A stretch of 64,000 bases of DNA from Escherichia phage vB_EcoS_HdH2: the sequence record NC_048748.1; one strand, written 5' to 3'. Positions 30,330-63,779 of this stretch are shown in pieces. Positions within the stretch are counted from its first letter, which is position 1; each line of letters starts with the position of its first letter. The notes under the pieces were generated by a model. That model worked only from the letters and a program-made list of their open reading frames with translations. It searched no databases and had not been told where the DNA came from. A program made the translations under genes and the position numbers.

Positions 30330-32402
30330 TTACCTTATATGAATATACCCGCTATTTAGGTCTATCTTCATCTTGTAGTATGCCTCAGGGTTTCCTGATA
30401 ACGCAGCGTTCCTATCATAAATGATGTTAACACCGATCTGAGATAAGAAAGCATTTCCTGCTACAATTTTATCTGCCGTCACCGTCCCATTAACAATCAT
30501 GTTTCCGTGGAGAACCATTGCAGGGTTAACCCAACCAGACCCATTCCATTGTCTTGTAAATGCTGATTGTGGAGCATTACTATTAAATTCGGTTAATACA
30601 TCATATCTAACAGGAGGACTACCAAAGTTATTCTGGAAGAAGGCATTAGCCTGCCCATCATCCCAACCCCCAAGACCAGGAATACCTAAGGAGTACATTC
30701 CAGGACCACGTTGTCCATCATGTCCTATAGTACCTTCAGTACCACTCCACTGAACTACATCAGACCAGCTAGTACCTTCAAGAAGTTTGTTAGTAACGGG
30801 ATCAAGCGTACCTGTAGTGGCATAGATATTTTGTGTCATATCTGTACGGTTAGGTGGAGTTTTTGACCAACCAGGAGGCGGATAATCTTGTTCTAGTGGT
30901 TTAGCAGGTAGAGATGTTGCTAACTTATAAACAAATACTGTTTGCTTACCTTGCATACCAGTACCTAGATCTACATCGCCATTAGGAGTTCCAATAACTA
31001 CTCCACTAGAAATACGTAGCACATCACCATCATAACGAATCCACTGTGTGGCATTACCAATGTCTAGTTTTGCTTTGGCTGAAGTATTATCCATACCCAT
31101 CCAAATACCAGAGTTATTATCCCCCCAGGATTTACCTTGTGTGTAGATTGCTGGATTATCTTTACCAGATAAGTTAGTCATGATAAAGTTAGCAGCATTG
31201 ATATCTCTAGTAATTACTTTACCATCAACGTTAACAACACGGTTTATAGGGTCAAAAGAAATGGGTGCTTTCCCTTCTTCATCTAGTAGACCAATGTTAA
31301 TAGCACCAGTAGCTGCGTCGATTAAGAATGTCTGTCTCCAGATTTCTCCATCTTTCATACTACCCTTAATAAAGGCATAGTTAACATCAATACCCGTCTC
31401 ATTGACAAAGCTGTTGTCTAGAGGAGTATCTTCATTCAATATAAATGTTACAGGAGCTGATTCTGTTATATCCTGTTTATTTGGTCCCCAGGCAATTGAC
31501 GAAACCTTAAAGGTATGTTCAACTTTCCACGGGAATGATATAATCGTTGCAGCTCTAGCAGCCCCAACGTTTATCTTTTGAGCTTTAGCCCAGCCAGTCT
31601 TAGCGTATTCTTCAGAGTTTATATAAGTAACCAGAAATTCACGGACATTAGCACCCGCACCACGTTCCCAGTCCCACTCTATTCTAACATCATATCGTTC
31701 CTTACCATCTGCGATTCGTGCAGCTTTAAAGGCAATATTAGTAGGTGCGGTAGGTGGTACGAAATTATAAGCTACAGTGAAAACGCTAGGATATTCATAA
31801 TAACCAGATGAGTCAACTGTAACACCATCTGGCATCGTAATTTGACCAGATATTCTGATCTTATAGTCGCCAACAGGAACACCACCAAATTTGATAGTAG
31901 GTCCCAGTGCGCCTATATAATATTTAACCCATTCACTATCTTCTGATGCAGTACTTTTTAATTCAATAGTGCAGTAACTAGCTTCACCAGCCGTCTCTAC
32001 AACAACTATTGGAGCACCAACACCAACGTCAACGGGTTCTGATTCAGATCTTGCTGCAGTAATTATTGGCTTTTCCTTTGTTCTAAAGTTAGTTTCATTA
32101 GAGAGGTTGATACCAATCTTAGCTTCCAGTAACTCTGAGTCAATAATTGAGTCATAGAAAGCCCCCTGGATCTCATAGGAGGTAGAGGGGGTTAGATTAT
32201 TAATCATTACGAAGAAAGTATCTATACCGGTGTAATCACGTCTATCTATACTTTCTCCTATTTTTAACCAAAAAGATCTACCAATAACATCATAATCAGT
32301 ATAAATGGAGTGCTGGACATAAGCCAAAGTATATCCAGTCATTATACTATTTAAGACCATTTTGGCTGGTGCATTATTTGAAATCATTAAATGGATGCCC
32401 AC
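30330..32402 (-). CDS. central straight fibre / baseplate protein (T5 pb4-like)
   Basis: 690 aa, directly downstream of the hub gene; call by size and synteny. Confidence 0.6.
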   Translation of the reverse strand: MGIHLMISNNAPAKMVLNSIMTGYTLAYVQHSIYTDYDVIGRSFWLKIGESIDRRDYTGIDTFFVMINNLTPSTSYEIQGAFYDSIIDSELLEAKIGINLSNETNFRTKEKPIITAARSESEPVDVGVGAPIVVVETAGEASYCTIELKSTASEDSEWVKYYIGALGPTIKFGGVPVGDYKIRISGQITMPDGVTVDSSGYYEYPSVFTVAYNFVPPTAPTNIAFKAARIADGKERYDVRIEWDWERGAGANVREFLVTYINSEEYAKTGWAKAQKINVGAARAATIISFPWKVEHTFKVSSIAWGPNKQDITESAPVTFILNEDTPLDNSFVNETGIDVNYAFIKGSMKDGEIWRQTFLIDAATGAINIGLLDEEGKAPISFDPINRVVNVDGKVITRDINAANFIMTNLSGKDNPAIYTQGKSWGDNNSGIWMGMDNTSAKAKLDIGNATQWIRYDGDVLRISSGVVIGTPNGDVDLGTGMQGKQTVFVYKLATSLPAKPLEQDYPPPGWSKTPPNRTDMTQNIYATTGTLDPVTNKLLEGTSWSDVVQWSGTEGTIGHDGQRGPGMYSLGIPGLGGWDDGQANAFFQNNFGSPPVRYDVLTEFNSNAPQSAFTRQWNGSGWVNPAMVLHGNMIVNGTVTADKIVAGNAFLSQIGVNIIYDRNAALSGNPEAYYKMKIDLNSGYIHIR

Positions 32403-47237: not shown

Positions 47238-48451
47238 TCTTTATCTCCCTCGGTGGAACCTTGAGGTCTACCACCTTCTTGACCAGATACACCTGTTGCA
47301 GAACCAGCAACGTTAGCAGGAATACGAATCCTATCCATCTGCTCATCATCTAAAGGTTCAAGGTTCAGCTCTAAACGAGCTTCGTTACCAGTCATAATAC
47401 CATTATTAACCAATGAGGTTAAATGTTTAGCCTCAGCTTCTTTATCTGGTGTTAATGCAGCTACTTCCTTAGTATTAGGAGTAATCTTATAACCAAAAAA
47501 GAAAGTAAGAGAACTAGTCAGTTTGTTCAGCATAGGAATGATAGTCATATAATAGAACAGTTCGATGTTTGGTCGAATATTCGCATTATTACCACCATCA
47601 AGCAGTACTTGCGGAACTCCAAAGGCTAGACAAATAGATTTATTAAACCCTTCGATGTCTTCCTTAAAGTCTAGATCTTTAAAAGAGGATATTTGGGAGT
47701 ACGGTTTAGCTTTCATACCACCATCTAGAATCAGGACAGAAGACTGACCCGTACTAGGATTATAATCGAGTTGTAATTCTTCTTGTTTACGCTCACGCAA
47801 TTTCTTGTTCAGGATTTCATCCGTTTCAAGAATAAGACCAATCACGGTTCCGTTATCGAGGAACTTCTCTTTAAAGTTAAGCATCTTAGAACGCTTCTCA
47901 AGAGAATCAATAACAGTAGCAACACGAGATTGTCCAGAAATTTGAGAATTTGTGCCACACACGTAACTGTTATCCTTTATAAAGATAATCTCATCTACGC
48001 GATAGTCTATCTGATTATTAAATATAAATTTTTTGATAAACTTATTGGCATCTGCCTCGACCTGCATAAGAGCAGCCGGGACGTGGTAAAGCGATGTGCC
48101 ATCCCAATAGATGTATGCACAGCCTTCAAAAAGTAGGTCAGTGACTACAAGTCTACGGAATGTGCTTATATCCATGAATGGATTAGGTCGTACATTTAAG
48201 AGAGTGTCTAGAGTCTTTGTTTTGACGCCATTAGCGTACGTAACAATATTATATTTATCTCCGACAGTATAAGAACACTCCGCCGCACTATCTATAACCA
48301 TATTGGCAGTTCGATTGAGAATCTCAATCTTGCTATAGGCTTGTCCAGTGGTAAAAGGCTTACGGTTAGTGCGATGACTAACTGGTTCCATGTCTCTTAT
48401 AATACGTTGACCCGGATTTAACTTTTCAGTAATCCAGCTTTTTAAACCCAT
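47234..48451 (-). CDS. portal protein (T5 pb7-like)
   Basis: 405 aa; position between terminase and protease. Confidence 0.8.
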   Translation of the reverse strand: MGLKSWITEKLNPGQRIIRDMEPVSHRTNRKPFTTGQAYSKIEILNRTANMVIDSAAECSYTVGDKYNIVTYANGVKTKTLDTLLNVRPNPFMDISTFRRLVVTDLLFEGCAYIYWDGTSLYHVPAALMQVEADANKFIKKFIFNNQIDYRVDEIIFIKDNSYVCGTNSQISGQSRVATVIDSLEKRSKMLNFKEKFLDNGTVIGLILETDEILNKKLRERKQEELQLDYNPSTGQSSVLILDGGMKAKPYSQISSFKDLDFKEDIEGFNKSICLAFGVPQVLLDGGNNANIRPNIELFYYMTIIPMLNKLTSSLTFFFGYKITPNTKEVAALTPDKEAEAKHLTSLVNNGIMTGNEARLELNLEPLDDEQMDRIRIPANVAGSATGVSGQEGGRPQGSTEGDKE

Positions 48452-48975
48452 TATAAGAACCTTGCGAATCCTGATTTTATTTCAGTCTTGACTTGTGTCT
48501 TTTCTTGAGGATTCTGTAATTTGTCTTTCTGCTTTTGAACCCATGCTTTCTGTTTATTAGCAGAAAATAATGGAGGTTCTTTCGTGTAAACCTTATGTAA
48601 TAGTTGGTGATGGTGTACACAAAGGGTAACAGTGTCTTCTACTAGCTCATGCCTATATCGATCATAGAATGCCGTCCTATTTGAAAGGACTATTTCTTCG
48701 TCAGTGAAATCCAATTGGAGTTCTTTAGCAAATTTTTTAACTAGTAGAGACACCGTATGGTAATGATGAAGCTCTAATTCTTCAGCACAACCGCAGATAG
48801 CACATTGAGAGTCTTTTTTATATTGACTTTTTATTCCGTCTCTCATAAGGGATATAGCATCGCGTTTATATTTTATATTGCTTGCCATAGTGTTCTCCTC
48901 AACTGTATGAATATAGTATACATAATCGTATCGAATTTGTAAAGGGGATTTTAAAATACAGGAATGGGATACCAA
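48451..48975 (-). CDS. HNH endonuclease (zinc-binding)
   Basis: CAICGCAEELELHHYH...CVHHHQLLH; between terminase large subunit and portal genes. Confidence 0.6.
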   Translation of the reverse strand: MVSHSCILKSPLQIRYDYVYYIHTVEENTMASNIKYKRDAISLMRDGIKSQYKKDSQCAICGCAEELELHHYHTVSLLVKKFAKELQLDFTDEEIVLSNRTAFYDRYRHELVEDTVTLCVHHHQLLHKVYTKEPPLFSANKQKAWVQKQKDKLQNPQEKTQVKTEIKSGFARFL

Positions 48976-49003: not shown

Positions 49004-50320
49004 TTATTTACCACGGGAAATAGAATAAATTCCATAGCGGAGCGCATCACAAAGGTGAGAGTTAGCATCATGACGTGGTTTTTCACGTGATAATTTCTCT
49101 TCGCCTTCTTGGAAGTCCCACTTATAGTTCTGCAATGCATGAATTAAGGAGGAACATGAGGCATCCACAATAATTTTCCCTTGCTGAAATAACGCTTGCA
49201 AACATGCTAGGCCATCTAGGACAGATTTTTTAGCTGGAGCTGATGCAATTTCGTGCTCATAAGCTAAGTCCTGGCGGAACTGAGCGGCGGCAGAGTCAAC
49301 AAAAATACGATCAACTTTATAACGATTTATACAATGCTGAATATAAGCAGCATGCTGGGCTGTAGTTTTTTCCGCCTGCTGGTACTCTTCTAATACATAG
49401 TAAGTATCCGTATCGTAATGATATTTAATAGTAAGAACTGCTGTAGGATCACGATAACCAACGTCAATACCAAGCAATGTTTCGAATGCTTCATCATCTT
49501 TAAAGAAGTGACGCATACCTTTGAGGTCTTTAACATGATCGATAGCATTAAAGGTATCGAAGATCTGACCTTCGAATACAGAGAAGTCAGCCTCGTATTC
49601 TTGGCGGAAGTAGTTTTTACTAACAGTACGACGTGCTTCCTCAATATCATTCAGGTCAGCACGTGGATTATCACGATATGTACCATGAATAGATACCCAG
49701 TTAGGTAATGTATCATCAAATCCATAGGCATAAAACTCTTTAAACCAGTTACCACCACGAGGAGTAGAGATAAATAGAGCCTTAGAATTAGGCTTATCTA
49801 GAGTAGGACGCAGCTGAACTCTAAAGGCATCACCACCTACATCGGAAATTGCCGCCTCGTCAAAAATGATAAAGTCATATGAACGTCCAACTGCGGAGTC
49901 AGCCTGAGCAGCGGAAGCTAGTTTAAACAGAGAACCATTAGCTAACTCAATTTCCTTATCTTTAGCGTTCTCACGTTCAGTTTGTAGGCCATATTTTTTA
50001 ATAAGACCACGAATCTGAGACCATCCGATGTTGGCCAGTGAATAGTTAGGAGCAACTACTAACACCTTCACATTAGGTTCCAGCAATTTTAGGAACCCAA
50101 GAGTATATGCGATGAAGGATTTACCTACACGGCGTGATACACACGCCGTTACAAAACGATGTCTAGGGTCCTCTAGAGCATTAATAATCGCTATTTGAGG
50201 ACCATTAGGTGTAATACCTTCTTGTGCTAGTATTCCCGAAACAGGTAGACGAAAGAAACGTTTATCTATTCCGAAATCAATAACATCTACTGTATTAACG
50301 TAAGGTCTTGATACTTCCAT
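49004..50320 (-). CDS. terminase large subunit
   Basis: 438 aa; Walker A CVSRRVGKSF, Walker B YDFIIFDEAA. Confidence 0.9.
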   Translation of the reverse strand: MEVSRPYVNTVDVIDFGIDKRFFRLPVSGILAQEGITPNGPQIAIINALEDPRHRFVTACVSRRVGKSFIAYTLGFLKLLEPNVKVLVVAPNYSLANIGWSQIRGLIKKYGLQTERENAKDKEIELANGSLFKLASAAQADSAVGRSYDFIIFDEAAISDVGGDAFRVQLRPTLDKPNSKALFISTPRGGNWFKEFYAYGFDDTLPNWVSIHGTYRDNPRADLNDIEEARRTVSKNYFRQEYEADFSVFEGQIFDTFNAIDHVKDLKGMRHFFKDDEAFETLLGIDVGYRDPTAVLTIKYHYDTDTYYVLEEYQQAEKTTAQHAAYIQHCINRYKVDRIFVDSAAAQFRQDLAYEHEIASAPAKKSVLDGLACLQALFQQGKIIVDASCSSLIHALQNYKWDFQEGEEKLSREKPRHDANSHLCDALRYGIYSISRGK

Positions 50321-50802
50321 TACTTCTTACCTCCAGTAGCTAGGGAAGTAATTAAGTCCATGTAGTTTTGATCCCCAGCTCCAGCAATAATATTATTCTG
50401 GATGTTGGTCTGATTGGCTGGAGTACGGGCTGCTGCCTTCACTTTCTCCAGTTCTACCATCATTTTCATTTCTTCCATCTTCATCTTGTGTGCCTTCCAG
50501 AGAATGTCCATAATATCCTGGTCAGAACCCATGCCGGTTTCTTCTAGTTCCTCCAGCTTACGCTTGATAACTTCATCCAGAACACCAAATAAACGATCCC
50601 TATTACGGAAACCACTCTCCATAAAAATATCGTTTAAGTAGTTTTTAACTTCACTACGATTCATAATATCTCGGAAAGCAATTTCAGACATTCCAAGACT
50701 ACGTGCCGCAGAAGGCACATCGCTACCACACTGTAAATAAGCTTCAATCACATCCATCCCTTCAGGGGACATAAGATCTGGTACTAATACATCATTTGCC
50801 AT
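50320..50802 (-). CDS. terminase small subunit (by position)
   Basis: 160 aa immediately upstream of large subunit; AGGAGG SD. Confidence 0.5.
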
Positions 50803-50812
50803 ATTTCCTCCT

Positions 50813-52600
50813 TTAGGTAAGGCGTTGAACTGTTACTCTTAATCTCGGTAGGAAAATAGCTGCAGCCTCATCAGCGTGAATAATTACGCCCAATTCAGCA
50901 TTACCATTTCCTAGATTTTTAATAGTATAAATATATCCGTTTCTTCTAAATGTTAACTCATCAGGTCTACTTGCCCAAGTTTGAGTATAACTGTATGCAG
51001 TAGTGGAGTGATAAGGGACTAAGTATCCAGGAGGTAAGGTTAATATTTGATGGAATATTCCATCACCTTCCGTGTAACTATGCTGTCTTCTTCCTTGTAC
51101 TTGCCAAGCAACACCACCATATGTGCGTATAGCTCCTCCTGCGGTATTAATATTCCCCATGATAACTTCAGTAGTTAATATTACTGTTGCGTTAGCATTA
51201 GGCAATCCTAATCCTATGGTGGCCAAAGCTCTATAGTAGTTACCTGCTCCAGGATATGTTGGAGTTATATCATCGCCAACGTAAGTGCTAGCAACATTAT
51301 TAGGAAATAGTCTTAAGGGTACAGTACTAGGACTCCACACAGCTCCATGCTCATTACCTATAGTGTTATTACTTGAGTTTACGTACCATTGTTTACCCGC
51401 TCCGAATTTGTAAATACTAATTTGAGACTTAGCCCCTCCATAATCTACGGGAGACCATAAAGATCCATTACTAGATCCTACAATTTCACAGCGCGCAGTA
51501 GTATCCCCGAAGGCTCCAGTGTACGCTGCGTTATTTCCAATGTACTCCATATCTGGCCTATAGCCTAAGTTACCAAAAGCATTTTGGTTGATAAACTTAT
51601 ATCCAGTATTTGGTAAACTAACCCCTTTTATAGTAAAATTAGATGGAGTTATAAGTATATCTGACCCAGTAAATGGATTACCGGATACGCCCATATTACC
51701 ATTAGAGTACCTTAGATTAAGTACATACCAAATAACTTTGGTAGGTGTAATATTATAACCATCCTGCACATATACTTTCTTAGCGGCCTGTGCCGCTAAA
51801 TTAGATGTTGAACCTTTGCATATGTAAACCTTATCAGGGTAAGTAGGAGATTGATACAATAAGTTAACATTAGCCGGTACTGTGCCCTTTTTACCTACAT
51901 AACCTCGTATATTAGAGTTACAAACGTAAAACCAATTATGCCCTCTATGGGCGGCCCCTATAGGAGCTTGCCAATTAGGGTGCCAGTAGTCAGCATTACC
52001 ACCATCTATAGGTACTGTAGACGCTCCTGCTGGAAATCCTGCTAAAGTCCATGCCCTACCTATAGCCTCACCAGCATATGCTCCTCCCGGTCTATATAAA
52101 TTAAACCCAGAGGCTTGAGATATGGTACCACCTGTACCCTGCCTAGCAATTGATTCTTCATGCCCTAAACCAGAGTTATAAATATAGGTGCCATGTGCTA
52201 AACTATTACCGGATGCAAAAGCTGACGTAAGACCTACTTCTGCACCTGCCCTACCAATAGGCGGATCTTCAAAAAATGCAGTAAATTGACCAACTTGAGA
52301 TTGAGTACCATTAAGAAAAGCTCTGTGAGTACCATTTATCTCAATAGCAGTTAGTATAACTCTACCTGGGTCGTTGGATTTAATATTTATTATGTCAGAG
52401 GGCATTTGACATACAAAAAACCCATTCCCGGCATTACCTAATGCAGCCTCATAAGTACCATCAACTAGGACAAATGGCATATCACTATGAAAAATACTAT
52501 TGGCATTTGGACTATAGTGACGATTAATGTCACCACCAGATTCAGTATTTAAAGATAGTACGGTCTTACCATCGCTATATTTTCCAGCGAAAAAACCCAT
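50813..52600 (-). CDS. receptor-binding tail protein (T5 pb5/oad-type)
   Basis: 595 aa; divergently adjacent to a lipoprotein gene as in T5 oad-llp; Gly/Asn/Tyr-rich. Confidence 0.6.
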
Positions 52601-52625
52601 ATAATCTCCTATTATAAAAATGTAT

Positions 52626-52654
52626 TTGCTTTCATCCCTCTATTTTGCTATAAT
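52626..52654 (+). promoter_or_regulatory. sigma70-type early promoter for llp
   Basis: TTGCTT, 17-bp spacer, TATAAT, then AGATTCATAAATTAGAAATGGAGAG. Confidence 0.7.
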
Positions 52655-52685
52655 AGATTCATAAATTAGAAATGGAGAGATAAAT

Positions 52686-52952
52686 ATGAAAAAGTTTGTG
52701 ATTGCACTAGTTGCCGCAGTTATGTTGTCTGGTTGTGCACCTACCCCCAAACCATTTTGTACGGGATTTGTAAAATCTTTTGGCGGTGCTGGGGAGGAGC
52801 ATTACGGCCTCAAGGTTCAAAAAGTTCGTATTAAGGGAGATCGCTTCCCAGTAGTACAGCTCCGTACTAAGTTTGGGTGGTGGGATCTCAGTCAGTTTGA
52901 CCTTAAATACGGTGATTGTAAATTTAAACTAGAGCAATCTAACTACCTGTAA
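52686..52952 (+). CDS. llp: lytic-conversion (superinfection exclusion) lipoprotein, Llp-like
   Basis: Signal peptide plus lipobox MKKFVIALVAAVMLSGC; 88 aa; divergent from receptor-binding protein gene. Confidence 0.7.
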   Translation: MKKFVIALVAAVMLSGCAPTPKPFCTGFVKSFGGAGEEHYGLKVQKVRIKGDRFPVVQLRTKFGWWDLSQFDLKYGDCKFKLEQSNYL

Positions 52953-53128
52953 TTAGTATAAAGCAAAAAGACATCCAAGTAAACTAAATTTTTTATTTCT
53001 TGGATGGTGTACTGGCAGAAACCACTATATAAGAAAAGTAGAAGTCCTTCTAGGAGTTCACAGGCACGGTTGGTTGTACACAAATTATAGAATATTTCAA
53101 AAATCACATTTATAGGAGTATGAAAGAT

Positions 53129-53257
53129 ATGTCAAACAAAAGAAAGAGCAGACGCGGAGAAGTGTACGATAGCTGGATTAATAGTTTTGGACTTGGTACT
53201 ATCCTATTCTTTATTTTCGTAGGTTTTTGGTTAGCAGCTATGGCGGGGTGGATTTAA
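53129..53257 (+). CDS. small membrane protein (42 aa)
   Basis: AGGAG 9 nt upstream; MSNKRKSRRGEVYDSWINSFGLGTILFFIFVGFWLAAMAGWI; not in ORF track (below its size cutoff). Confidence 0.5.
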   Translation: MSNKRKSRRGEVYDSWINSFGLGTILFFIFVGFWLAAMAGWI

Positions 53258-53364
53258 TGGAATGGGTAATTATTGCACTACTAGGGATTGTGATTATCGG
53301 GCAATGTATTTTAGATAATCACTTAGCTAGAATTGAAACCTTATTAACGGAGAAGCGTAAATGA
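53257..53364 (+). CDS. small membrane protein (35 aa)
   Basis: TAATG overlap with previous ORF; MEWVIIALLGIVIIGQCILDNHLARIETLLTEKRK. Confidence 0.45.
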   Translation: MEWVIIALLGIVIIGQCILDNHLARIETLLTEKRK

Positions 53365-53555
53365 TGGAAGTAGTAGCTACACTAATAGTAATACTAGTAT
53401 GGGCAACTTTCATTGTTTCTTATAACGCGTATGTTCGCCTAAAAACTCTAGAAGCTCAAGTAAAACAACAACAAGTTACTCTAGAAAAGCTAGTACTACT
53501 GCAACGTTGTGATAGCACCCGTATTCTGCAAATTGAGAGGGAATTAGATGTTTAG
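53361..53555 (+). CDS. small membrane protein (64 aa)
   Basis: ATGA overlap; N-terminal hydrophobic helix VVATLIVILVWATFIVSY. Confidence 0.5.
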   Translation: MMEVVATLIVILVWATFIVSYNAYVRLKTLEAQVKQQQVTLEKLVLLQRCDSTRILQIERELDV

Positions 53556-53793
53556 TATTATAATTGCTTTTATTATAGGGGTATTTGCGGGAGTTTTCGG
53601 GATGACTGCGGCTATTAACAAGCATCGTAAATATATTGCGGAAGTATCGCGGGAGATTGCGGAAAGGGAGCGGAAGTTTGACGAGAAACGTGCGGAGTTT
53701 GAGCGGGAGTGGTCGGATGGATCTCGGGCGTCGCGGAAGAGATTCCGTGAGTTTAGACCAGAACACAGGTTCGATGGCCCTTCTATGCGCTAA
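53548..53793 (+). CDS. small membrane-anchored protein with charged tail (81 aa)
   Basis: Hydrophobic IIIAFIIGVFAGVFGMTAAI then Arg/Glu-rich tail. Confidence 0.5.
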   Translation: MFSIIIAFIIGVFAGVFGMTAAINKHRKYIAEVSREIAERERKFDEKRAEFEREWSDGSRASRKRFREFRPEHRFDGPSMR

Positions 53794-53898
53794 TTGGGAA
53801 ATCTCGAAATTTCATAAGATTACACATGGAGGTGTGTCCAGTGGCCCCCCAGATGAGAATGAGTCTCATTACCGCCCGTTACTATTACCATGCTAACT

Positions 53899-53935
53899 GT
53901 TTCACCCTGCAACCATTTTAATTGCAAGGTGAAAC
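53899..53935. other. 13-bp-stem hairpin between convergent genes
   Basis: gtttcaccctgcaa / ttgcaaggtgaaac (one mismatch); no flanking U-run. Confidence 0.4.
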
Positions 53936-53952
53936 AATATCAACTTTAATTA

Positions 53953-54687
53953 TTACGCAACTTTTAATTTCTCGATATATTGTTGCGGGCTGCAACTATA
54001 TTCTGCGCGTTCTTCTTCTGTCATACTTTCCCAACATAATTGCAAGCGATCGGCTAGGAACTGATAATCATTATCATCCTCAAGAGATTCATCAATAAAG
54101 GTTTCACCTATCAATGTGACGCCGATTGATAGAATATCGTTAATAGCTTGCGCGTCCAGCGTTTTAAATCCATATGATGCCGCCGCTGATAGCACGCCTT
54201 TATGATCGTCGATCATCGTGAAATCAGCGTTCGGGTATAGCTGTTTGAATAGCTCAAAATAATGGCTTTTATAAATAGCGTCCTTACTGTGGTATATTTC
54301 GCTAACTTTATCAGCCGTAAAATATTTGTGAAGTGTATCGCGGGAAAATACACGGATATTACTATCCCCACGCCCTCGCAATCCTTGCTTGCGCAAATAA
54401 TAATAGTCCGACTTGCTCATCAGTCGAGCGGTACAAATAATGTTTAACGTGTTGGCGTCATTCATGCACTGGCGCATATATGTAACAAGCGGCAATAAAG
54501 TATCCTGCATTATTAAATCATGTTTACATGCTTCATTTTTATACTTATTTAAATCTAAATTCCCATCGCTATCAAAGCAAGGCGCTACGCGATGAAATGA
54601 ATTGATGATTGTTCCGTCCAGATCCCAAATCATGACGCGGGAAATATGCGGGAAATTACGGGTAATATTCGTTTTAACTTGATTCAT
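53953..54687 (-). CDS. dmp: HAD-family phosphatase, candidate 5'-deoxyribonucleotidase (dmp-like)
   Basis: 244 aa; HAD motif I MIWDLDGTIINS; located in pre-early-type block with A1-like gene. Confidence 0.5.
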   Translation of the reverse strand: MNQVKTNITRNFPHISRVMIWDLDGTIINSFHRVAPCFDSDGNLDLNKYKNEACKHDLIMQDTLLPLVTYMRQCMNDANTLNIICTARLMSKSDYYYLRKQGLRGRGDSNIRVFSRDTLHKYFTADKVSEIYHSKDAIYKSHYFELFKQLYPNADFTMIDDHKGVLSAAASYGFKTLDAQAINDILSIGVTLIGETFIDESLEDDNDYQFLADRLQLCWESMTEEERAEYSCSPQQYIEKLKVA

Positions 54688-54761
54688 TTTGTTACGTTCT
54701 CCGTTTAAGGGATTAAATTAAATTAATCCAGCCCACTGGATGGGCCGGACTATTCCAGCTA

Positions 54762-55154
54762 TTAAAGACCATAAGCCAACGCATCAGCGATAAAACTAAT
54801 ATCCTCACCTGATACATCGGAACGGATGCCCGCGCATGTAAATACCTTCGCGCTCATTAGCTGATCATCAAGGCAAGCGGGGCAAGGGGCAACTACTGCG
54901 AAAGCTAACCCCGATTTCACCGCGTCGATGATAGTCGTTTCTTGTTTCATCGTGTCAATATAAACGCCTTTCGCCTTGATGCGGCTGGATAGTTTGCCCG
55001 TGGTATAGGCAAAGGTAGTAACCTGCAAAGCGTCATTAAAATCTAATAGGTCATCAACAACGTGCCCCGCCTCAACGTGATACCGCTCACCATTAGAATA
55101 AACTAGGACGATGGAAGAATGAGCGCGATCGAATGGAATATTTTGCTTTTTCAT
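54762..55154 (-). CDS. hypothetical pre-early protein (A2 position)
   Basis: 130 aa, downstream of A1-like gene. Confidence 0.4.
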   Translation of the reverse strand: MKKQNIPFDRAHSSIVLVYSNGERYHVEAGHVVDDLLDFNDALQVTTFAYTTGKLSSRIKAKGVYIDTMKQETTIIDAVKSGLAFAVVAPCPACLDDQLMSAKVFTCAGIRSDVSGEDISFIADALAYGL

Positions 55155-55175
55155 ATTTATAAAACTCCAATTAGT

Positions 55176-55685
55176 TTAATAAGGGATATTAAATTCTTTA
55201 CACTTTGATTTAACCCATTCTAAAAGAATAGATAAATCATAATTGCCTTTTGAAACATATTTATTTGTTATAGGGTTTTTAATTTTTGCCCTGTAATATT
55301 CTCCCGCTATGGGATCAACTTTATCAAGATAAATATATTTCGGTAGTTTATTACGCCTTTTATAATCACTCTTATTTGTCATATTAACCGCATGAGTAAC
55401 TAGGCGTAAATTATTTATATCGTTGTTAACGGGGTAAGAAATTATTTTATGATCTATATCTAAATCAGGGTTAATTTCTTTATTAAATAAAACCCAAATT
55501 AAACGATGAGCTTTATATAATTCACCATTAATCATTACATCATAATAGCCTGTCTGATTTAATGTTCCCGCTACACTTCCAGCTTTCACACCGGGCTTAC
55601 TTATTTTCCATCGTAAAAATGATGGGCTAGATTCATCATAATAAACATTCTCGTTAACTTCATTAAAATCTATTTCTTTTGCCAT
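55176..55685 (-). CDS. free-standing HNH homing endonuclease
   Basis: YKAHRLIWVLF...DIDHKIISYPVNNDINNLRLVTHAVN; paralogue of 59474..59821. Confidence 0.75.
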   Translation of the reverse strand: MAKEIDFNEVNENVYYDESSPSFLRWKISKPGVKAGSVAGTLNQTGYYDVMINGELYKAHRLIWVLFNKEINPDLDIDHKIISYPVNNDINNLRLVTHAVNMTNKSDYKRRNKLPKYIYLDKVDPIAGEYYRAKIKNPITNKYVSKGNYDLSILLEWVKSKCKEFNIPY

Positions 55686-55755
55686 TTATATTCCTCCAAT
55701 TAATATTATCTCATTAATTGGAGGATTTAGGCAAATAAGGTTTTAATTTATCGGC

Positions 55756-57429
55756 TTACTGTACAAAGAATTTACCGTTCTTAAAGTCGATCAAAGTACG
55801 CTGGCCGTTCGCATAGGTAATAACATGCGTTTGCGTCCAGCTTGACGCGCCAACGTTGTAACCCATATCCAGACTACCAGACACGCCGGCAGTGTATACG
55901 CCGCCGTAAATGCTGGCGGTGTGAGTGTGCCCCGTGTTTAATTTGCCCAATTTCTTAAATTGCTTCGGATTGCCACGGCTCCCGTTAATGCCATTGTGAC
56001 CGTGTACGCCGCATTCAATGCCTGCAATTTTAAATGATTGGTCAGTGGTCAGGAAAATAGCGTTAAATTCACAACCTGCAACCTTGCGCAGCGCATAATC
56101 TAGCACGTTGAAAGTATCGTCTTTTTCTGCAATAGCTCCGTAAATCGCAGCATTAAGGCGGTGATATAGTTCCGCGTTGGCTGGATCGTCTTTAATGTTA
56201 GCATTACGATCATCAAGCCAACGGGATAACGCCAGATCATGGTTAGATTCAACAATGATCGTTTGAGCAAAATCGCGCTCCATTGATTCCAGTACGCGCC
56301 CGGTATCGATCAAATCATCAATAACCTTATCACGTCCGGCGGCGTATTGTTTTGCTAGGAATACACCAGACGCACGATTATGATGATTGCGTGATGTAAA
56401 ATCATGCACGTCATGCACAAACTGATATTTTGGCTTCAGAATATCAACAAGCCCGTAGGTGTCACCATGCCCCCACGACGCAGCGGCGCACTCCTCATCT
56501 AATTTTTCAGCGTGAATATCGCCATATTGTAAACCTAAAACGTGCCCCGTTGTTTCATAGCATCCGGCGGGAGTGGCGCAAATATTCAAATCGTAAAACA
56601 TGCCGCTTTCGTCCATCGTTTCAAGCTGGCGAACAAAAAATTCCCCGTCCTCGTCGAACTCAACGACAAGCGCACCAAAGTTATGTAGCGCCTCGGCCTT
56701 TTGCCCTGCTTTCTGCTGGATGTAGTTTTTAAGCGTTGCCGTGCCCGTTGAATACATGCGGCGCACTACTTCACCTTTTAAAGCTGGCACGCTTTCGGCG
56801 GTGATTTTAGCCGCCCCGATTGCCAGACCTTCCAGATTAAGCGCCGTTGCAGTTTCAGCGAATCCAGAAAGCGGATAATCTGCGGTAGGTAACACGTTAA
56901 TCTCCGCCATGAAAGCAAAACGGCGATTATTTAAAAACACGTTTTTGCTGCAAATATATTTATCAAATGCAGAATCATATTTGATTCCGTCCGCGCCCTC
57001 ACCATTTTGGAATCCGTTTTTATTATAAATATACTTAGAAACAAGCAAATCAGCGCCGATAAACTGGGCATATTGTTCAAGCGAGGCTAAAAAGTTTTTA
57101 TGCGGGAAAGTATTATTCTGAATCGAGGTAATAATAAAGCGTTTGCCTTGTTTTACTTCCCAGCTTTCCACCGTGCTAGAAATAACTCCGGCGGCTTCAG
57201 GGCGGTCATCGTTTTTAATAGCTTTTACAGTTTTTGCCGCTTTTGGTTTCGCTGGTTTATTTGCTTCCAGCCAATCACAAATAGCGGTGGAATGCTTTGG
57301 AGTATCGTAAACCGCTTTCGAAATATCGTCGCATACTTCCAGTTTAGTAGCGCGCAGACGTTTACCATAGAAATTGAAGTCAGCGGCAAGGTTCAGGATA
57401 ACGGTTTGTTTTTCTGCGGAAATAATCAT
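55756..57429 (-). CDS. A1: A1-like pre-early protein, calcineurin-type metallophosphoesterase
   Basis: 557 aa; motifs GLQYGDIHAEK, VESNHD, GVHGHNG, GHTH. Confidence 0.7.
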   Translation of the reverse strand: MIISAEKQTVILNLAADFNFYGKRLRATKLEVCDDISKAVYDTPKHSTAICDWLEANKPAKPKAAKTVKAIKNDDRPEAAGVISSTVESWEVKQGKRFIITSIQNNTFPHKNFLASLEQYAQFIGADLLVSKYIYNKNGFQNGEGADGIKYDSAFDKYICSKNVFLNNRRFAFMAEINVLPTADYPLSGFAETATALNLEGLAIGAAKITAESVPALKGEVVRRMYSTGTATLKNYIQQKAGQKAEALHNFGALVVEFDEDGEFFVRQLETMDESGMFYDLNICATPAGCYETTGHVLGLQYGDIHAEKLDEECAAASWGHGDTYGLVDILKPKYQFVHDVHDFTSRNHHNRASGVFLAKQYAAGRDKVIDDLIDTGRVLESMERDFAQTIIVESNHDLALSRWLDDRNANIKDDPANAELYHRLNAAIYGAIAEKDDTFNVLDYALRKVAGCEFNAIFLTTDQSFKIAGIECGVHGHNGINGSRGNPKQFKKLGKLNTGHTHTASIYGGVYTAGVSGSLDMGYNVGASSWTQTHVITYANGQRTLIDFKNGKFFVQ

Positions 57430-57526
57430 AGTAATAAAGCTCCATTAAAGGGATTAAAAACGTTTGTTATTGGCAAATATTGCCAGATATAACGCCGCTT
57501 ATTTACAGCGTTATAACTTGCAATAT

Positions 57527-57772
57527 TTAACTAATCGGCATAAGGCTAGAACTAACACCACAAGCAACGGCGGCAATAAAGCAAAGTAAGCCCAACCGCT
57601 TTGCTAATTTAGATTTACGTTTAAAATAATATGAATCTAAATCATTTTGAAAATAAGCGAACAATAATGAGGCCGCTACAATAAATAAGCCTAAAATTAG
57701 CGATTCAGTGGGGTAAAAGATCATTTTAATAACTCCAGTCAAAGGGAAATTATAGTGGGGAATATTCCCCAC
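57527..57772 (-). CDS. small membrane protein
   Basis: 81 aa; two hydrophobic helices. Confidence 0.5.
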   Translation of the reverse strand: MGNIPHYNFPLTGVIKMIFYPTESLILGLFIVAASLLFAYFQNDLDSYYFKRKSKLAKRLGLLCFIAAVACGVSSSLMPIS

Positions 57773-57781
57773 TAATTAAAT

Positions 57782-58189
57782 TTATTCGCCTGCGGCTTGT
57801 TTTACTTCATCGGCAACGCCTAACAGCTGCGCCACGGCGTCCAACGTTTCTAATTTTGCGCTTTCCAGTGATGCCAGATCGTCAACGTCTTTGATAATGC
57901 CGGAATCAATGGCATGTTTAGCGATAACACGCACATAATGCGCTTTACGAATGGAACTGCCGCCGCCAACTTTACGCGGCTTATCGCTTTTCTGATACGC
58001 TTTCGCGCTGGTCAATTTTGAGCGAACGGACACGGGGGAGGCCGCACCTACTGCTTTCGCAATCTCTTTCAAGCCGTCGCTATTTGCGAAATCTAAACCG
58101 TTTTCATTGATTAGCTGCTGATACATGGAAACAGCCTGCTGGGTGTTTTCTTCATTCCAAGAAAATTTTGCGGTTTTAACGTTAGTCAT
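57782..58189 (-). CDS. hypothetical pre-early protein
   Basis: 135 aa; AGGAG SD. Confidence 0.55.
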   Translation of the reverse strand: MTNVKTAKFSWNEENTQQAVSMYQQLINENGLDFANSDGLKEIAKAVGAASPVSVRSKLTSAKAYQKSDKPRKVGGGSSIRKAHYVRVIAKHAIDSGIIKDVDDLASLESAKLETLDAVAQLLGVADEVKQAAGE

Positions 58190-58290
58190 GATTATAACTC
58201 CTATTGAATTAATTTAAGGGATAAGATTAACATAATGTTAATCGTTATATCCCCCGAACTACTGGGGGATATAAAAGTAACACTATAAAC

Positions 58291-58542
58291 TTATGCTACA
58301 GCTTCCCATTTTTCGTTACGCTGGATAACCTTTACAGCGTCGCCGGATTTAACCCGAACGCTATAAATAGTTTTTCCGTTGTTACTCCGTTCCGTTTCAG
58401 CGTATACCGCATCAATTACATCAAACGGCATAAGCGCCGCGCCTTTGATGCGTTCGGTTTTTCCGGTTGCCTCATCCGTTTTAGTAACGAAAGGAATAAA
58501 AACGGATTGACCAATTTTAGGCGCATTAGTAACGTTTTGCAT
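58291..58542 (-). CDS. hypothetical small protein
   Basis: 83-aa ORF. Confidence 0.45.
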   Translation of the reverse strand: MQNVTNAPKIGQSVFIPFVTKTDEATGKTERIKGAALMPFDVIDAVYAETERSNNGKTIYSVRVKSGDAVKVIQRNEKWEAVA

Positions 58543-58774
58543 AGTATAAACTCCAGTTTATTTAGTGGATTGTTCCGCATTACCTGCTGTAAAAGTAGTG
58601 GCAGGTAATAAGTAACAATCCGCTCGCCATTATAATCAATTTAAGGAACTCCACTCAGGCCGCTATATCCCAGTTAGGGGGCGGGGCACATTATGGCAAG
58701 TACCGGCCGTCAAATTTTATCAAGTTATCGCTCTCATCGAACTGGGTACATCTTAAAGCCTATCGGCTAGGGTG

Positions 58775-58978
58775 TCAAACAATTTTTTGCAGTTTTTTAT
58801 GATTCTCTTTCAAGTCAATCATAATATTGCGCCAGATCATTTCCAACCCTTGCTGGCGGCCTTTCTTGTACTGCGTGAATCTATATTTTACGGATTGCTG
58901 AGCTATTGTCAACAATTTTTTAGTAGTACCATCCAATTTTTTGGCTGGTTTACCAGTTATTAAAAGCGTTTGTTTCAT
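58775..58978 (-). CDS. hypothetical small basic protein, enclosed by 24-bp inverted repeats
   Basis: 67 aa, Lys-rich; AAGGA SD. Confidence 0.4.
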   Translation of the reverse strand: MKQTLLITGKPAKKLDGTTKKLLTIAQQSVKYRFTQYKKGRQQGLEMIWRNIMIDLKENHKKLQKIV

Positions 58979-59473
58979 ATCTGCGATTCCTTATATAATT
59001 GATAAGTTTACCGCCGATAGACTTTAAGATGTACCCAATTTTTAAAGAGCGCGGCGGTAAACTTTCCCGCCGTGTAGTTCGTCATTGCCGCCCTACGAGA
59101 TAAATAATAGGGGATACCCAAAAATGGCGCAACCTTATTTTTGTAAAGAAATGTAAAGAAGGCAACACGCCCGGCGCTCACATAAGTTTAAAGGAAACGG
59201 GCGCGCGGATACCACAAAACACAGCAGATAGGCAAGTAATTTTTTCATTTATATTTGCCTTGCCCTACTTGACAAAACTTAAAAAGCTCGTGGTAGCGAT
59301 AAACGAGGGTAGGCAATGCAATGGCATACCTGAAAATTTTACCGCTTTCTAGGGCGTTTTAGGCGGCCTAAAATTGATTTAACAAATATTTAACAACTGC
59401 AAAATTGAAAAATAGTTGGAAAAGGTATTGACTTTTAAAAATCAAGACTAAATGAGTTATTTTATAAAATTAA

Positions 59474-59821
59474 TTAATTGACTTTCTTTTTATATTGTGA
59501 AGGCCGGTTTTTATTGTTTTCGGCCTGCGTTACTTGTCTAAGGTTATCCCCTTTATTATTTAGCTTGTTACGATCAATATGATCAATCATTAGATTACTA
59601 TCTATTTCACCATGTAATAGTAACCATACGACACGATGTACTAAATAACATTCTTTATTAAGTCGAACGATATAATAACCTTGTGAATAGTAAGTACCTG
59701 CAACTGTATCTTTCCTAACTCTTCCCTTATTGACTTTCCAGCGTAGTGACGTTTTCGATGTTTCATCATAATAAAAGTAATGATTAAACAAGTCATAATC
59801 CATTTCTTTATATTTACCCAT
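59474..59821 (-). CDS. free-standing HNH homing endonuclease
   Basis: YLVHRVVWLLLHG...DHIDRNKLNNKGDNLRQVTQAEN; N-terminus parallels 55176..55685. Confidence 0.75.
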   Translation of the reverse strand: MGKYKEMDYDLFNHYFYYDETSKTSLRWKVNKGRVRKDTVAGTYYSQGYYIVRLNKECYLVHRVVWLLLHGEIDSNLMIDHIDRNKLNNKGDNLRQVTQAENNKNRPSQYKKKVN

Positions 59822-59876
59822 TGTTATAGTTTCCTTATGTTATTAATTTAATCTCTATTATATTATATCAAAACCA

Positions 59877-59959
59877 TTAGCAGACTACCTAATGAGTTTT
59901 TCAAGTTTAATTAGCAGACTACTAATCCCGGAAAATCTCATTAGCCAACTAACTATTTC
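59877..59959 (+). repeat. three direct repeats of TTAGC(A/C)(G/A)ACTA(C/A)
   Basis: Copies at 59877, 59911, 59941 in the intergenic region upstream of the HNH gene start. Confidence 0.6.
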
Positions 59960-60085
59960 TTGAGTTATAATATAAATATAAATTAATGAGAAATAATCAC
60001 TATAAAAATAATCACTACGATAATAATAACAACAAGAAACTATCGGCCTAAGTGAGAACCACTATCATTTAAGTTATTCACAAAG

Positions 60086-60181
60086 TTATCCACAGCACAA
60101 AATGATTTGACACGATAGGCGGCGATATACGGGCTTATCCACAGACTTATCCACAGGTTATCCTACTGTATAAATATACAG
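60086..60181 (+). promoter_or_regulatory. left inverted-repeat module: three DnaA boxes plus a LexA-like SOS box
   Basis: TTATCCACA at 60086, 60135, 60147; CTGTATAAATATACAG at 60166..60181. Confidence 0.7.
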
Positions 60182-60448
60182 GGTAGAAAGGTAGTGTTAA
60201 CGACTGCAATCAATTTTATGCCGCCTAAAACGCTTTCTAACGAGCTAAATGCGGTGGGGTAATATTAAAGTAAAGCCGCAACGCGTCGCCCTGGTGGCTT
60301 CGCCGTGTTTTGCTCTTTACTATGCCGCTGCGCGGTTAGCATAAAACTAGGTGTTAGGCAAGGAAAATAAAAAGGTAAAATAATATTTGCCCCTAGAAAG
60401 AAAATACCTTTATCATTCACTCACCGATTAACGAGGGAGGCCGAACAA

Positions 60449-61426
60449 ATGAGGCTTTATAAACCAGATAACGCAACCGTCTTAAAAGGTGCATTGCGCA
60501 ACCTGCTGGATGGTAGCAGAACAACCAGCATTAAACACTTTGTTAACAAGGCCGAAGATATTCACCAAAATTTTTTTGATGATTTCGACGCCTATGATAT
60601 GAGTAGCTTTTTGCAACTATATAAGCAAGGGGCAACGATTATCTTATATAATCGAGATAATCACCTGCTTACTAGCAGGGGGCCGGACACTGATTTCATA
60701 ATCGTAAAAGGTAACACAGTAAAAGCCTATGATACTGGGGCGGGCTTAGAAGTTTTTTCAATAGAAAACTATGAAGCCAACCCCAATGATCTTTATGACG
60801 TTGAAAACTTTCTTGATTCATTTTGGCGTTATTTATCCGTTGGCTGGAATCGGTCAATTGGTGACGGGTATCGTCTGGCGGCTGTAATGGCTTTTGATGA
60901 TAACGGTAATTTTTTGTTACCGTCGGAAGTATACCCATACGTATATGATGGGGATATAGAAAGCGCGGGCTTTTCTTTCTGGAAGGAGGAGGATCAGCCT
61001 ATTGACAACACGGAAAAACATGCTGTAAATTCTAACACTCAAACCATTGAAAACAAAGGAAAAAATGCCATGACCAAGATCGCTAATATCGTTGCCGCTA
61101 ATAAGTCCGCCGTTGTAAATGCTGCAAAACTGGAAGCGGGTAAAATTGCACTGACTCAAATTACGAAAGTAGCGGCTAAAAAAGCACCGTTTATTATCAA
61201 GGGTTATATTGATACGCCGATTGGTCGGGTAGTGATTGCCAACCTGCTGAGCGTAGCGGTTGACCAGTACTCCCCTAGCAACCAAAAGGCGAAAGCGGTA
61301 GCGGATGCAGCTATGGAAGCGGCTATGTTAGAAATGGTACAAAGTTTTAACATCGCTGAAATGATTGACGAAATGGTGAAAGGTATTGATATTTCTACTT
61401 TTACCGTTAACACCGAAAACGAGTAA
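60449..61426 (+). CDS. hypothetical protein
   Basis: 325 aa; GAGG SD; terminator downstream. Confidence 0.65.
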   Translation: MRLYKPDNATVLKGALRNLLDGSRTTSIKHFVNKAEDIHQNFFDDFDAYDMSSFLQLYKQGATIILYNRDNHLLTSRGPDTDFIIVKGNTVKAYDTGAGLEVFSIENYEANPNDLYDVENFLDSFWRYLSVGWNRSIGDGYRLAAVMAFDDNGNFLLPSEVYPYVYDGDIESAGFSFWKEEDQPIDNTEKHAVNSNTQTIENKGKNAMTKIANIVAANKSAVVNAAKLEAGKIALTQITKVAAKKAPFIIKGYIDTPIGRVVIANLLSVAVDQYSPSNQKAKAVADAAMEAAMLEMVQSFNIAEMIDEMVKGIDISTFTVNTENE

Positions 61427-61451
61427 TAGTTAACCTAGTGTAAAGTTTTGT

Positions 61452-61480
61452 AAAGGTCGCCATAATCGGCGACCTTTTTT
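61452..61480 (+). terminator. intrinsic terminator
   Basis: aaaggtcgcc-ataat-cggcgaccttt followed by tttttt. Confidence 0.7.
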
Positions 61481-61544
61481 GTTATAATGCCTTTACACCG
61501 TTCGAGGACGGTTGAAAATTTTCCCAAAAATTTGGAGGCTTAAA

Positions 61545-61775
61545 ATGGTTGCTTATTCTTCTTCTGACTCTCTTTTCACTGGAAAAGGTTGGGTGTCCAA
61601 TCGCTGGATCATTCAAGAAATGGTGCAAGAATACGGCATTGCTAAAACTTACACTACCATTCAGGCGCTTTATGATAATGATCAGATTGATCAGCAGACA
61701 GCTGGCTTTTTGCTGGATACCCTGAAGGCGGAACATTGTACTAAAAAACAAGCCGCCAAAATCGTTTTAATGTAA
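61545..61775 (+). CDS. hypothetical small protein
   Basis: 76 aa from ATG 61545 after TGGAGG. Confidence 0.5.
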   Translation: MVAYSSSDSLFTGKGWVSNRWIIQEMVQEYGIAKTYTTIQALYDNDQIDQQTAGFLLDTLKAEHCTKKQAAKIVLM

Positions 61776-61821
61776 TTAATAACGGGGCGTTATTTTCGCC
61801 CCACTAACTAGGAGAATGAAA

Positions 61822-61968
61822 ATGGTTATTTTTCGAGCTATTCTGGCGGGTATCTTGGGCGCTATTTTATCTTTGTTTGCAATAGCTTTCGACGTTCACG
61901 CGGTTATTATTGGCGCGGGTATCGCTGTTTTTTCTTATTTGCTGGGCTGCATGAATAAAGGAGAATAA
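61822..61968 (+). CDS. small membrane protein (48 aa)
   Basis: AGGAG upstream; MVIFRAILAGILGAILSLFAIAFDVHAVIIGAGIAVFSYLLGCMNKGE. Confidence 0.5.
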   Translation: MVIFRAILAGILGAILSLFAIAFDVHAVIIGAGIAVFSYLLGCMNKGE

Positions 61969-61970
61969 AA

Positions 61971-62183
61971 ATGATCCGCAACGTTTCTCTTGCTCGTTCA
62001 AAAGGTTTTAAGCTGGTGGACGTTAACACGTTCGAACGGGAAGATTGTAAAATCGAATATATAGCACGGAATAAAAACGCCTTCCGTGTTACAGAAAAGA
62101 AATTCGATAAACGGGGTAACGTGATAGCTGAAACGGTTAAATATTTTGCCACCTTTTACGCTGCGTTTCGTGGGGTACTATGA
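61971..62183 (+). CDS. hypothetical small protein
   Basis: 70 aa, AAAGGAG upstream. Confidence 0.5.
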   Translation: MIRNVSLARSKGFKLVDVNTFEREDCKIEYIARNKNAFRVTEKKFDKRGNVIAETVKYFATFYAAFRGVL

Positions 62184-62305
62184 AAAGCGTTATTGTTATT
62201 CTCCTTGCAATGGTTGGCGGTTTTACCGCCACCTTATTTAAGAATGATCCCCTTTTACTGGGGATTTTTATGCTTTTATCTGGTTATCTGATCGGGAGGT
62301 TATAA
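62180..62305 (+). CDS. small membrane protein (41 aa)
   Basis: ATGA overlap; MKSVIVILLAMVGGFTATLFKNDPLLLGIFMLLSGYLIGRL. Confidence 0.45.
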   Translation: MKSVIVILLAMVGGFTATLFKNDPLLLGIFMLLSGYLIGRL

Positions 62306-62306
62306 A

Positions 62307-62651
62307 ATGGTAATTTATGAGGGCAACCGCTTTGTTACTAATTGCCGCCCGGCATTATTAGCAAACTACTTAAACCAGCTTTCACCTGAATATAAGGGCG
62401 TTGTTAATATTTACGAGGGAAAAGCGCATTATAAGATTAATGCGGTCGTTGCCCGTGAACTAGCATTTCAATTTTTGACCTTCGCATCGTGTGATATTCA
62501 GGTCATGGGTGAAGCATTAATAGCAGAAAATGAAGACGATTTTATTAATATTTTCCGCAAGGTATGCACCGAGCGCCTGATCATGAAAGGTGTATATATT
62601 CAATCAACGGCGGAAAGTATTGAAACGGCTTTTCGAAAGGTGGCACAATGA
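62307..62651 (+). CDS. hypothetical protein
   Basis: 114 aa; GGGAGG SD. Confidence 0.55.
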   Translation: MVIYEGNRFVTNCRPALLANYLNQLSPEYKGVVNIYEGKAHYKINAVVARELAFQFLTFASCDIQVMGEALIAENEDDFINIFRKVCTERLIMKGVYIQSTAESIETAFRKVAQ

Positions 62652-62753
62652 GATTATATATTTTCGCGGGTAATGTTGAGGCTGCAAATGATTCCGCTGG
62701 TGGCGATAATGTTCGCCACTATTGGCAAAAATATATTTACTAGGAGCTATATA

Positions 62754-62948
62754 ATGGGCAAGAATATTATTGTGACCAAAATCAGTACAATGGTTGACGT
62801 TTTTTACGTGCCCGATACGCCAGAAAACCGGCAAGCGGTCGAGCGGGGCGATTATGGTAGCGTTATTTATGATCACGATGGCTATTATCGGCATTTGGTC
62901 GATTCCTATGGGGAGGAGGAGAAGATCACGCATCGACTACCAGACTAA
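62754..62948 (+). CDS. hypothetical small protein (start uncertain)
   Basis: ATG 62754 after AGGAG; ORF track extends the frame to 62673. Confidence 0.45.
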   Translation: MGKNIIVTKISTMVDVFYVPDTPENRQAVERGDYGSVIYDHDGYYRHLVDSYGEEEKITHRLPD

Positions 62949-63025
62949 TAATCACGGGGCGCAACTATCAGGGAGTGCCCCAATTCCCAAATGAGAATCA
63001 TTCTCATTTGACCGCGCCCGTGATG

Positions 63026-63093
63026 GTTAGCCCGCTAACGATTAGGGTGTTACGTGTTGCCTTGTGTGATCGTTAGCGGGCTAACTAATTTTT
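63026..63093 (+). terminator. large hairpin plus T-run after the small-gene operon
   Basis: gttagcccgctaacg ... cgttagcgggctaac (15-bp arms, ~30-nt loop) followed by taattttt. Confidence 0.45.
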
Positions 63094-63205
63094 AAGCCTC
63101 CTCCAATTTTGCCCTTGTTTTAGTATCCCCACCAAAATTAAACGCGTTAGAATGCGATTCAGGACGTTTTAGCGGTATATTAGAATTATTCACTACATAG
63201 GAATA

Positions 63206-63313
63206 CTGTATAAATATACAGTAGGATAAGCTGTGGATAAGTCTGTTAATAACGCCTCAAAATGGCTAGGATTCTGTCAAGTCAAATCGTGCTGTTAATA
63301 AGTCTGTGGATAA
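63206..63313 (-). promoter_or_regulatory. right inverted-repeat module: LexA-like SOS box plus two DnaA boxes
   Basis: TACTGTATAAATATACAGTA (19/20 to LexA consensus); TGTGGATAA at 63232 and 63305 (TTATCCACA on minus strand). Confidence 0.7.
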
Positions 63314-63755: not shown

Positions 63756-63779
63756 GAAATTTTTGTGACTTCGATGAGA

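Follow-up and report, generated by a model that had tools for sequence, protein, structure and literature searches.

The receptors of several T5-like phages are known. T5 itself uses FhuA, H8 uses FepA, and BF23, SPC35, EPS7, DT57C, DT571/2 and phiR2-01 use BtuB (PMC8624392, PMC10644984, PMC4728585); the first of these papers lists EPS7, SPC35, DT57C, DT571/2 and BF23 as BtuB users. Next to the gene for their receptor-binding protein (RBP), which is called oad in T5 (product pb5) and hrs in BF23, these phages carry llp, the gene of a small lipoprotein. The cloned llp of DT57C lowers the plating of DT57C-type phages and of BF23 more than 100-fold and leaves T5 unaffected (PMC4728585). For the Llp of BF23, a drop in plating of >10^6 is ascribed to Mondigler et al. 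2006, as cited in PMC4728585. The Llp of T5 has a disulfide between Cys11 and Cys58, binds a non-native conformation of the plug and makes the extracellular loops EL7 and EL8 fold over the site at which pb5 binds FhuA (PMC9586334). We here analyse the corresponding locus of Escherichia phage vB_EcoS_HdH2 (NC_048748.1) in a window of 64,000 nucleotides. The phage is T5-like (Demerecviridae, Markadamsvirinae, Tequintavirus-like), and the locus is, with high confidence, a host-recognition module that consists of a BtuB-binding tail-tip protein and a BtuB-blocking lipoprotein. What was computed here comprises the structure of the genes, their family membership, the near-identity of their products to experimentally typed proteins and the conservation of the promoter. 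BtuB use by SPC35, BF23, DT57C, EPS7 and phiR2-01 is taken from the literature, as is the exclusion of BF23-type phages, but not of T5, by the Llp of DT57C and, at second hand, by that of BF23.

The RBP gene lies on the minus strand at 50813..52600, starts with ATG and encodes 595 amino acids (aa). Over residues 1-595 its product matches phrog_4815, the ‘receptor binding tail protein’, with an E-value of 3.9e-281; the solved T5 pb5 chains 8b14_B and 8a8c_B are matched with E 6e-46 in two stretches, residues 1-225 and 280-595. The original prediction, which had been made from the letters of the DNA, was therefore right in assigning the protein to the pb5 family, and alignment revealed similarity to the proteins of T5, BF23 and DT571/2. 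In a tblastn search of 50,697 phage records, the RBP matched 536, of which 522 covered at least 80% of the query. Identity was 84% for BF23, 66% for DT571/2, 59% for phiR2-01, 29.8% for T5 and 27.7% for H8. When the 536 records are ranked, a gap opens between 59% (phiR2-01) and about 31%; among the matches listed, a single partial one reaches 31%, below the BtuB-typed group.

Global alignment, by which the SPC35 protein was compared, gives the same order: 99.3% identity to SPC35, 83.9% to BF23 Hrs, 74% to SSP1, 67% to DT571/2, 37% to T5 pb5 and 35% to H8. From the SPC35 protein the RBP differs at four of 595 residues, A53G, T448A, R457T and V497T (window residue first). BF23 Hrs also has 595 aa, T5 pb5 has 640. 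The earlier guess that the length points to the BF23 type rather than to the T5 type is thus borne out by length and identity alike, T5 pb5 reaching 30-37% depending on the alignment. Being close to the BtuB-typed phages and only 28-37% identical to T5 and H8, the RBP is placed by its sequence in the BtuB-binding cluster of Markadamsvirinae, separate from the proteins that bind FhuA or FepA. The phage is accordingly predicted to use BtuB as its terminal receptor.

The partner gene, llp, is found on the plus strand at 52686..52952 and encodes a receptor-blocking (lytic conversion or superinfection exclusion) lipoprotein of the BF23 type with 88 aa. Its N-terminus, MKKFVIALVAAVMLSGC, shows the positively charged n-region MKK, a hydrophobic core and the lipobox L14-S15-G16-C17, which is encoded by 52725..52736 with the codon of the cysteine at 52734-52736. 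The Pfam model LPAM_1 scores 23.9 bits (cutoff 20), and phrog_1119 matches with E 2.6e-26. At 87 of 88 positions the protein equals BF23 Llp (AAZ03643, ‘receptor-blocking protein’); the sole change, Thr20 in place of Ala20, is also the only difference between the mature protein and the mature Llp of BF23 and DT57C. Identity is 100% to phage VAH1, 97.7% to SPC35 and to DT571/2, and 66% to the EPS7 type. Cys17, Cys25 and Cys78, i.e., positions 1, 9 and 62 of the 72 mature residues, are invariant in 12 homologues.

The 88-aa precursor would yield a 72-aa mature protein that begins with the lipidated Cys17. By the established +2 rule, the residue that follows a lipidated cysteine governs sorting by the Lol system, and lipoproteins without Asp at this position are expected to proceed to the outer membrane. 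Since the +2 residue of Llp is Ala, not Asp, Lol-dependent sorting to the outer membrane is predicted.

The original prediction had likened the lipoprotein to T5 Llp. As to arrangement and function, the comparison holds; as to sequence, it does not. A forced global alignment of the two proteins yields 28% identity, and the homology of the window protein is to the Llp of the BF23 type. The likeness to T5 therefore lies in arrangement and function.

The two genes are transcribed divergently from an intergenic region of 85 bp (52601..52685), and both have hundreds of full-length homologues. The 595-aa frame, the 88-aa frame and the LSGC lipobox all lie where they had been predicted, and a lipoprotein gene that diverges from a pb5-family gene is indeed the arrangement of oad and llp in T5. 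The pair is not a chance feature. On the RBP side of the intergenic region, a Shine-Dalgarno sequence AGGAG (52606..52610, minus strand; ‘ctcct’ on the plus strand) ends 5 nt before the ATG. On the other side, the Shine-Dalgarno sequence GGAGAG of llp (52674..52679, plus strand) is kept in BF23, SPC35 and DT571/2. Both signals were read from the sequence. Immediately downstream of the RBP gene follows that of the small terminase subunit (50320..50802, minus strand; phrog_3802, E 6.5e-91), which serves as a synteny marker, and then the large terminase gene (49004-50320, minus strand; Pfam Terminase_6N/6C). The presence of both terminase genes directly after the RBP gene is the synteny by which pb5/Hrs proteins are recognised (PMC8594841). 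In T5, BF23, SPC35, DT571/2 and SSP1 the gene order is identical. The RBP gene had been described as standing at the end of the tail and packaging module. This is correct on the map, where the gene adjoins that of the small terminase and closes the minus-strand late block on the right; as the block is transcribed, however, the RBP gene comes first in it.

The promoter of llp is sigma-70-like. It comprises the -35 hexamer TTGCTT (52626-52631), a spacer of 17 nt and the extended -10 element TGcTATAAT (52646-52654), all on the plus strand (52626..52654). The BF23 record (DQ097178) assigns to llp minus_35 and minus_10 signals that agree base for base with these hexamers, which confirms that the lipoprotein gene has a promoter of its own, as had been predicted. 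T5 has the same two hexamers, and its RefSeq record carries a promoter annotation at this position. The intergenic region as a whole is near-identical to that of BF23, SPC35 and DT571/2; with T5 included, the mean column identity is 91%. The promoter was called by alignment to the annotated promoters of BF23 and T5 and not by a generic scan: a consensus promoter scan did not report it, because TTGCTT agrees with TTGACA at only three of six positions. Early expression of llp and late expression of the RBP gene are inferred from T5 and not readable from the sequence; for the timing in T5, the source is the title under which PMC9586334 cites Decker et al. 1994.

From these elements the following course of events may be pieced together. 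The RBP, sitting at the end of the straight fibre pb4, would bind the vitamin B12 transporter BtuB irreversibly and thereby trigger the ejection of the DNA. Soon after infection llp would be expressed from its own strong sigma-70 promoter. After cleavage at Cys17 and lipidation, its product would be directed to the outer membrane's inner leaflet, where it is presumed to inactivate BtuB as a phage receptor. Superinfecting BtuB-dependent phages would thus be excluded, and the progeny would not be wasted on receptor in cell debris. By analogy, the blocking may proceed as with T5 Llp and FhuA, i.e., by binding to the periplasmic face and the plug, with the extracellular loops folded over the phage site.

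Some points weigh against this picture. The receptor use of this particular phage rests on homology, its RBP deviates from the SPC35 protein by the four substitutions mentioned, and the BtuB use of SPC35 (Kim and Ryu 2011) is known to us second-hand, via PMC8624392. For the RBP gene, the generic scan of the intergenic region gave no promoter-like site on the minus strand. Jamming of the plug from the periplasm is documented for a single pair, T5 Llp and FhuA. Moreover, when an alignment of 12 Llp sequences was compared with T5 Llp by hhalign, only residues 1-29 aligned, which comprise the signal peptide and the first cysteine, and Foldseek, run on the PDB with the Llp model, gave no significant match.

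The latter findings concern the question of whether the two types of Llp share a fold and a mechanism. We consider this plausible. More specifically, it is an even call that the BF23-type Llp is a divergent member of the small beta-barrel lipoprotein fold of T5 Llp, with the same terminal disulfide, and that BtuB is blocked by the same periplasmic plug-jamming, a ‘reverse allostery’. In the mature proteins the cysteines stand at positions 1, 9 and 62 in the window and at 1, 11 and 58 in T5. The model phrog_1119 accepts both proteins (2.6e-26 for the window Llp, 1.1e-19 for T5 Llp), yet this joint match is not independent evidence, because both types are probably among the members of that PHROG. 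In BFVD, Foldseek matched the Llp model only to the Llp of phiR2-01 (E 1e-8) and to a ‘super-infection exclusion protein’ of phage CEC_Kaz_2018 (E 4e-3). A sequence search of the PDB with Llp returned chance matches only (ovomucoid, cellulase; E >= 0.2), and T5 Llp, although contained in the PDB, was not found at E <= 10. If the idea is correct, a single ancient exclusion scaffold has been retargeted between TonB-dependent transporters, instead of having been invented twice independently. Alternatively, Llp might block BtuB in a way of its own, e.g., by masking the extracellular face or by stopping the insertion or maturation of BtuB. The lack of detectable homology to T5 Llp past the N-terminus and the missing Foldseek match argue for this alternative, and the two proteins are described in the literature as non-homologous (PMC4728585, PMC10644984); we nevertheless regard it as rather unlikely.

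A second alternative concerns the receptor. The RBP could belong to the BF23/SPC35 cluster and still bind something other than BtuB, due to a few substitutions or to mosaic recombination, and Llp would then be mismatched. Mosaicism is indeed evident in this cluster. Compared with the window protein, the RBP of SSP1 is 98-100% identical in residues 1-100 and 90-98% in residues 301-400, but only 48-60% in residues 101-300 and 451-550. The Llp of phages with such mosaic RBPs stays 97-99% identical; that of SSP1, next to its RBP, is 97% identical. Since the RBPs are mosaic while Llp is constant, recombination does occur, either inside the two genes or between them, a conclusion also reached in PMC4728585, where the discordance of a near-invariant Llp and a mosaic RBP was described earlier for DT57C and BF23. 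The divergence of BF23 Hrs from the window RBP is spread over the full length, with 76-92% identity per bin of 50 residues. A switch of receptor in the phage discussed here is, however, very improbable: its RBP departs at only four of 595 residues from that of SPC35, a listed BtuB user, and DT57C (67%) and phiR2-01 (59%) are far more divergent and use BtuB all the same.

A case of apparent decoupling has been reported in this context. According to PMC12980165 (2026), the RBP of Citrobacter phage Cit2 is 96.9% identical to T5 pb5, from which FhuA use was inferred, and is accompanied by a ‘decoupled’ BtuB-type Llp. In our alignment the Cit2 RBP (OP745948.1; gene pair at 758-2515 and 2601-2867) is 36% identical to T5 pb5 (NC_005859) and 97% to SSP1. 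As judged from these values, it falls in the BtuB cluster and the reported decoupling looks like a mislabelled comparison.

The least likely alternative is that the 88-aa protein is some other small outer-membrane lipoprotein, say an o-spanin, or else an unrelated moron: o-spanins do occur among the small lipoproteins of phages that have a lipobox, the Pfam match is to a generic lipid-attachment site only and the score with the NCBIfam Cor model is 16.1 bits (cutoff 31), yet the near-complete identity to BF23 Llp, a reported receptor blocker, together with the phrog_1119 match, the adjoining RBP gene and flanking ORFs (open reading frames) without an i-spanin-like or other lysis gene make it hardly credible. 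The o-spanin reading in particular was discarded on account of the BF23 Llp identity and the gene context. The preferred interpretation thus remains that of a BtuB-directed pair, in which the RBP binds the receptor and Llp blocks it.

The virion carrier of the RBP is encoded in the same window. The gene of the straight central fibre protein pb4, at the tip of which the RBP is located, lies at 30330..32402 on the minus strand and is recognised by Pfam PB4_spike (E 3.5e-199) and three PB4 Fn3 domains. Two adjacent tail-fibre genes on the minus strand (24575-26818 and 26818-29901; 747 and 1027 aa) both match tail-fibre PHROGs. As a pair they resemble the two-protein branched LtfA/LtfB fibres of the DT57C type, unlike the single ltf of T5 and BF23. 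Between the portal and the large terminase genes, a putative homing-endonuclease-like ORF of 174 aa (48451-48975, minus strand) is Cys/His-rich and matches phrog_3497 at 3e-69 and, weakly, an HNH PHROG; its listed TTG start is probably too far upstream.

On the other side, llp is followed on the plus strand by four small ORFs (53120..53793; 45, 45, 64 and 81 aa), which are homologues of T5.159-T5.162 (phrog_8596, phrog_6369, phrog_5851 and phrog_6447; E 1e-26 to 1e-46). One of these PHROGs is named ‘membrane protein’. The second ORF probably starts at the internal Met11, from which its PHROG alignment runs. The generic scan did not report any terminator and none was seen between llp and the downstream ORFs; the RNA fold of the 181 nt that follow llp has a z-score of -1.75 and offers no convincing terminator. 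As a terminator-like site is missing between them, the four small ORFs may share the llp transcript.

Farther to the right, the long terminal repeat with the pre-early genes is expected from ~53835 (region about 53835-64000), because in SPC35 the right terminal repeat starts 42 nt past the gene of the 81-aa membrane protein. In this region a 244-aa ORF (53953-54687) matches phrog_415, a 557-aa ORF lies at 55756-57429, and a putative homing-endonuclease-like ORF (55176-55685, minus strand) reaches 26.8 bits with Pfam HNH_3.

The module is widely distributed. At a coverage of at least 80%, the 2.9-kb region is present in at least 243 deposited phage genomes, and its nucleotide identity is 95-97.5% in OSYSP, NBSal003, KPP2018, SPC35 and others. 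Compared over 25 kb, NBSal003 (94.5%) and OSYSP (93.6%) come nearest, and the surrounding genome is about 91-95% identical to its closest records. Because even the closest genomes stay at these values, the phage may be a distinct isolate or species. In practical terms, BtuB use and exclusion matter when phages are combined into cocktails against Salmonella and E. coli, since cross-resistance would arise in btuB mutants. Infected cells are predicted to become refractory to other BtuB-dependent T5-like phages.

The module as such is not new; it has been annotated before as ‘receptor-binding protein / receptor-blocking protein’. To the literature on SPC35, BF23 and DT57C we add nothing except a weak structural hint of a fold common to BtuB-type and FhuA-type Llp. 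Among the described systems that resemble it is Cor of T1- and phi80-like phages (Drexlerviridae, lambdoid phages). The Cor proteins are likewise small outer-membrane lipoproteins that inactivate a TonB-dependent receptor and exclude superinfecting phages; tblastn finds weak matches to Llp (28-34% identity, E 7e-4 to 0.2), and a PHROG is held in common. They differ in belonging to other phage families and in their classical target, FhuA, and Llp does not reach the NCBIfam cutoff for a Cor equivalog.

The oad (pb5)-llp pair of T5 is the prototype directed at FhuA, with structures 8A8C, 8B14, 8A60 and 7QJF. Position, divergent orientation, promoter hexamers and RBP family are the same as in the window, and the order of the RBP and small terminase genes is that of T5.156/T5.157. 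The N-terminal 50 residues of the RBP are 50% identical to those of pb5, and both Llp proteins show the three-cysteine pattern and fall into phrog_1119. The T5 module, however, is specific for FhuA, not for BtuB; its pb5 is longer (640 aa) and only 30-37% identical, and its Llp, with 77 aa, lacks significant similarity past the first ~30 residues.

BF23 is much closer. Its hrs-llp pair (DQ097178; Mondigler et al. 2006) is the same module, with coinciding promoter signals, an Llp that agrees at 87 of 88 residues and an Hrs of equal length, which is, however, only 83.9% identical. Another close counterpart is the gp143-gp144 pair of SPC35 (NC_015269), annotated as receptor-binding tail protein and ‘Cor superinfection exclusion protein’. 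There the order of large terminase, small terminase, RBP and divergent llp is the same, the RBP (595 aa, 99.3%) and Llp (88 aa, 97.7%) differ by four and two substitutions, respectively, and the intergenic region is identical over the aligned stretch.
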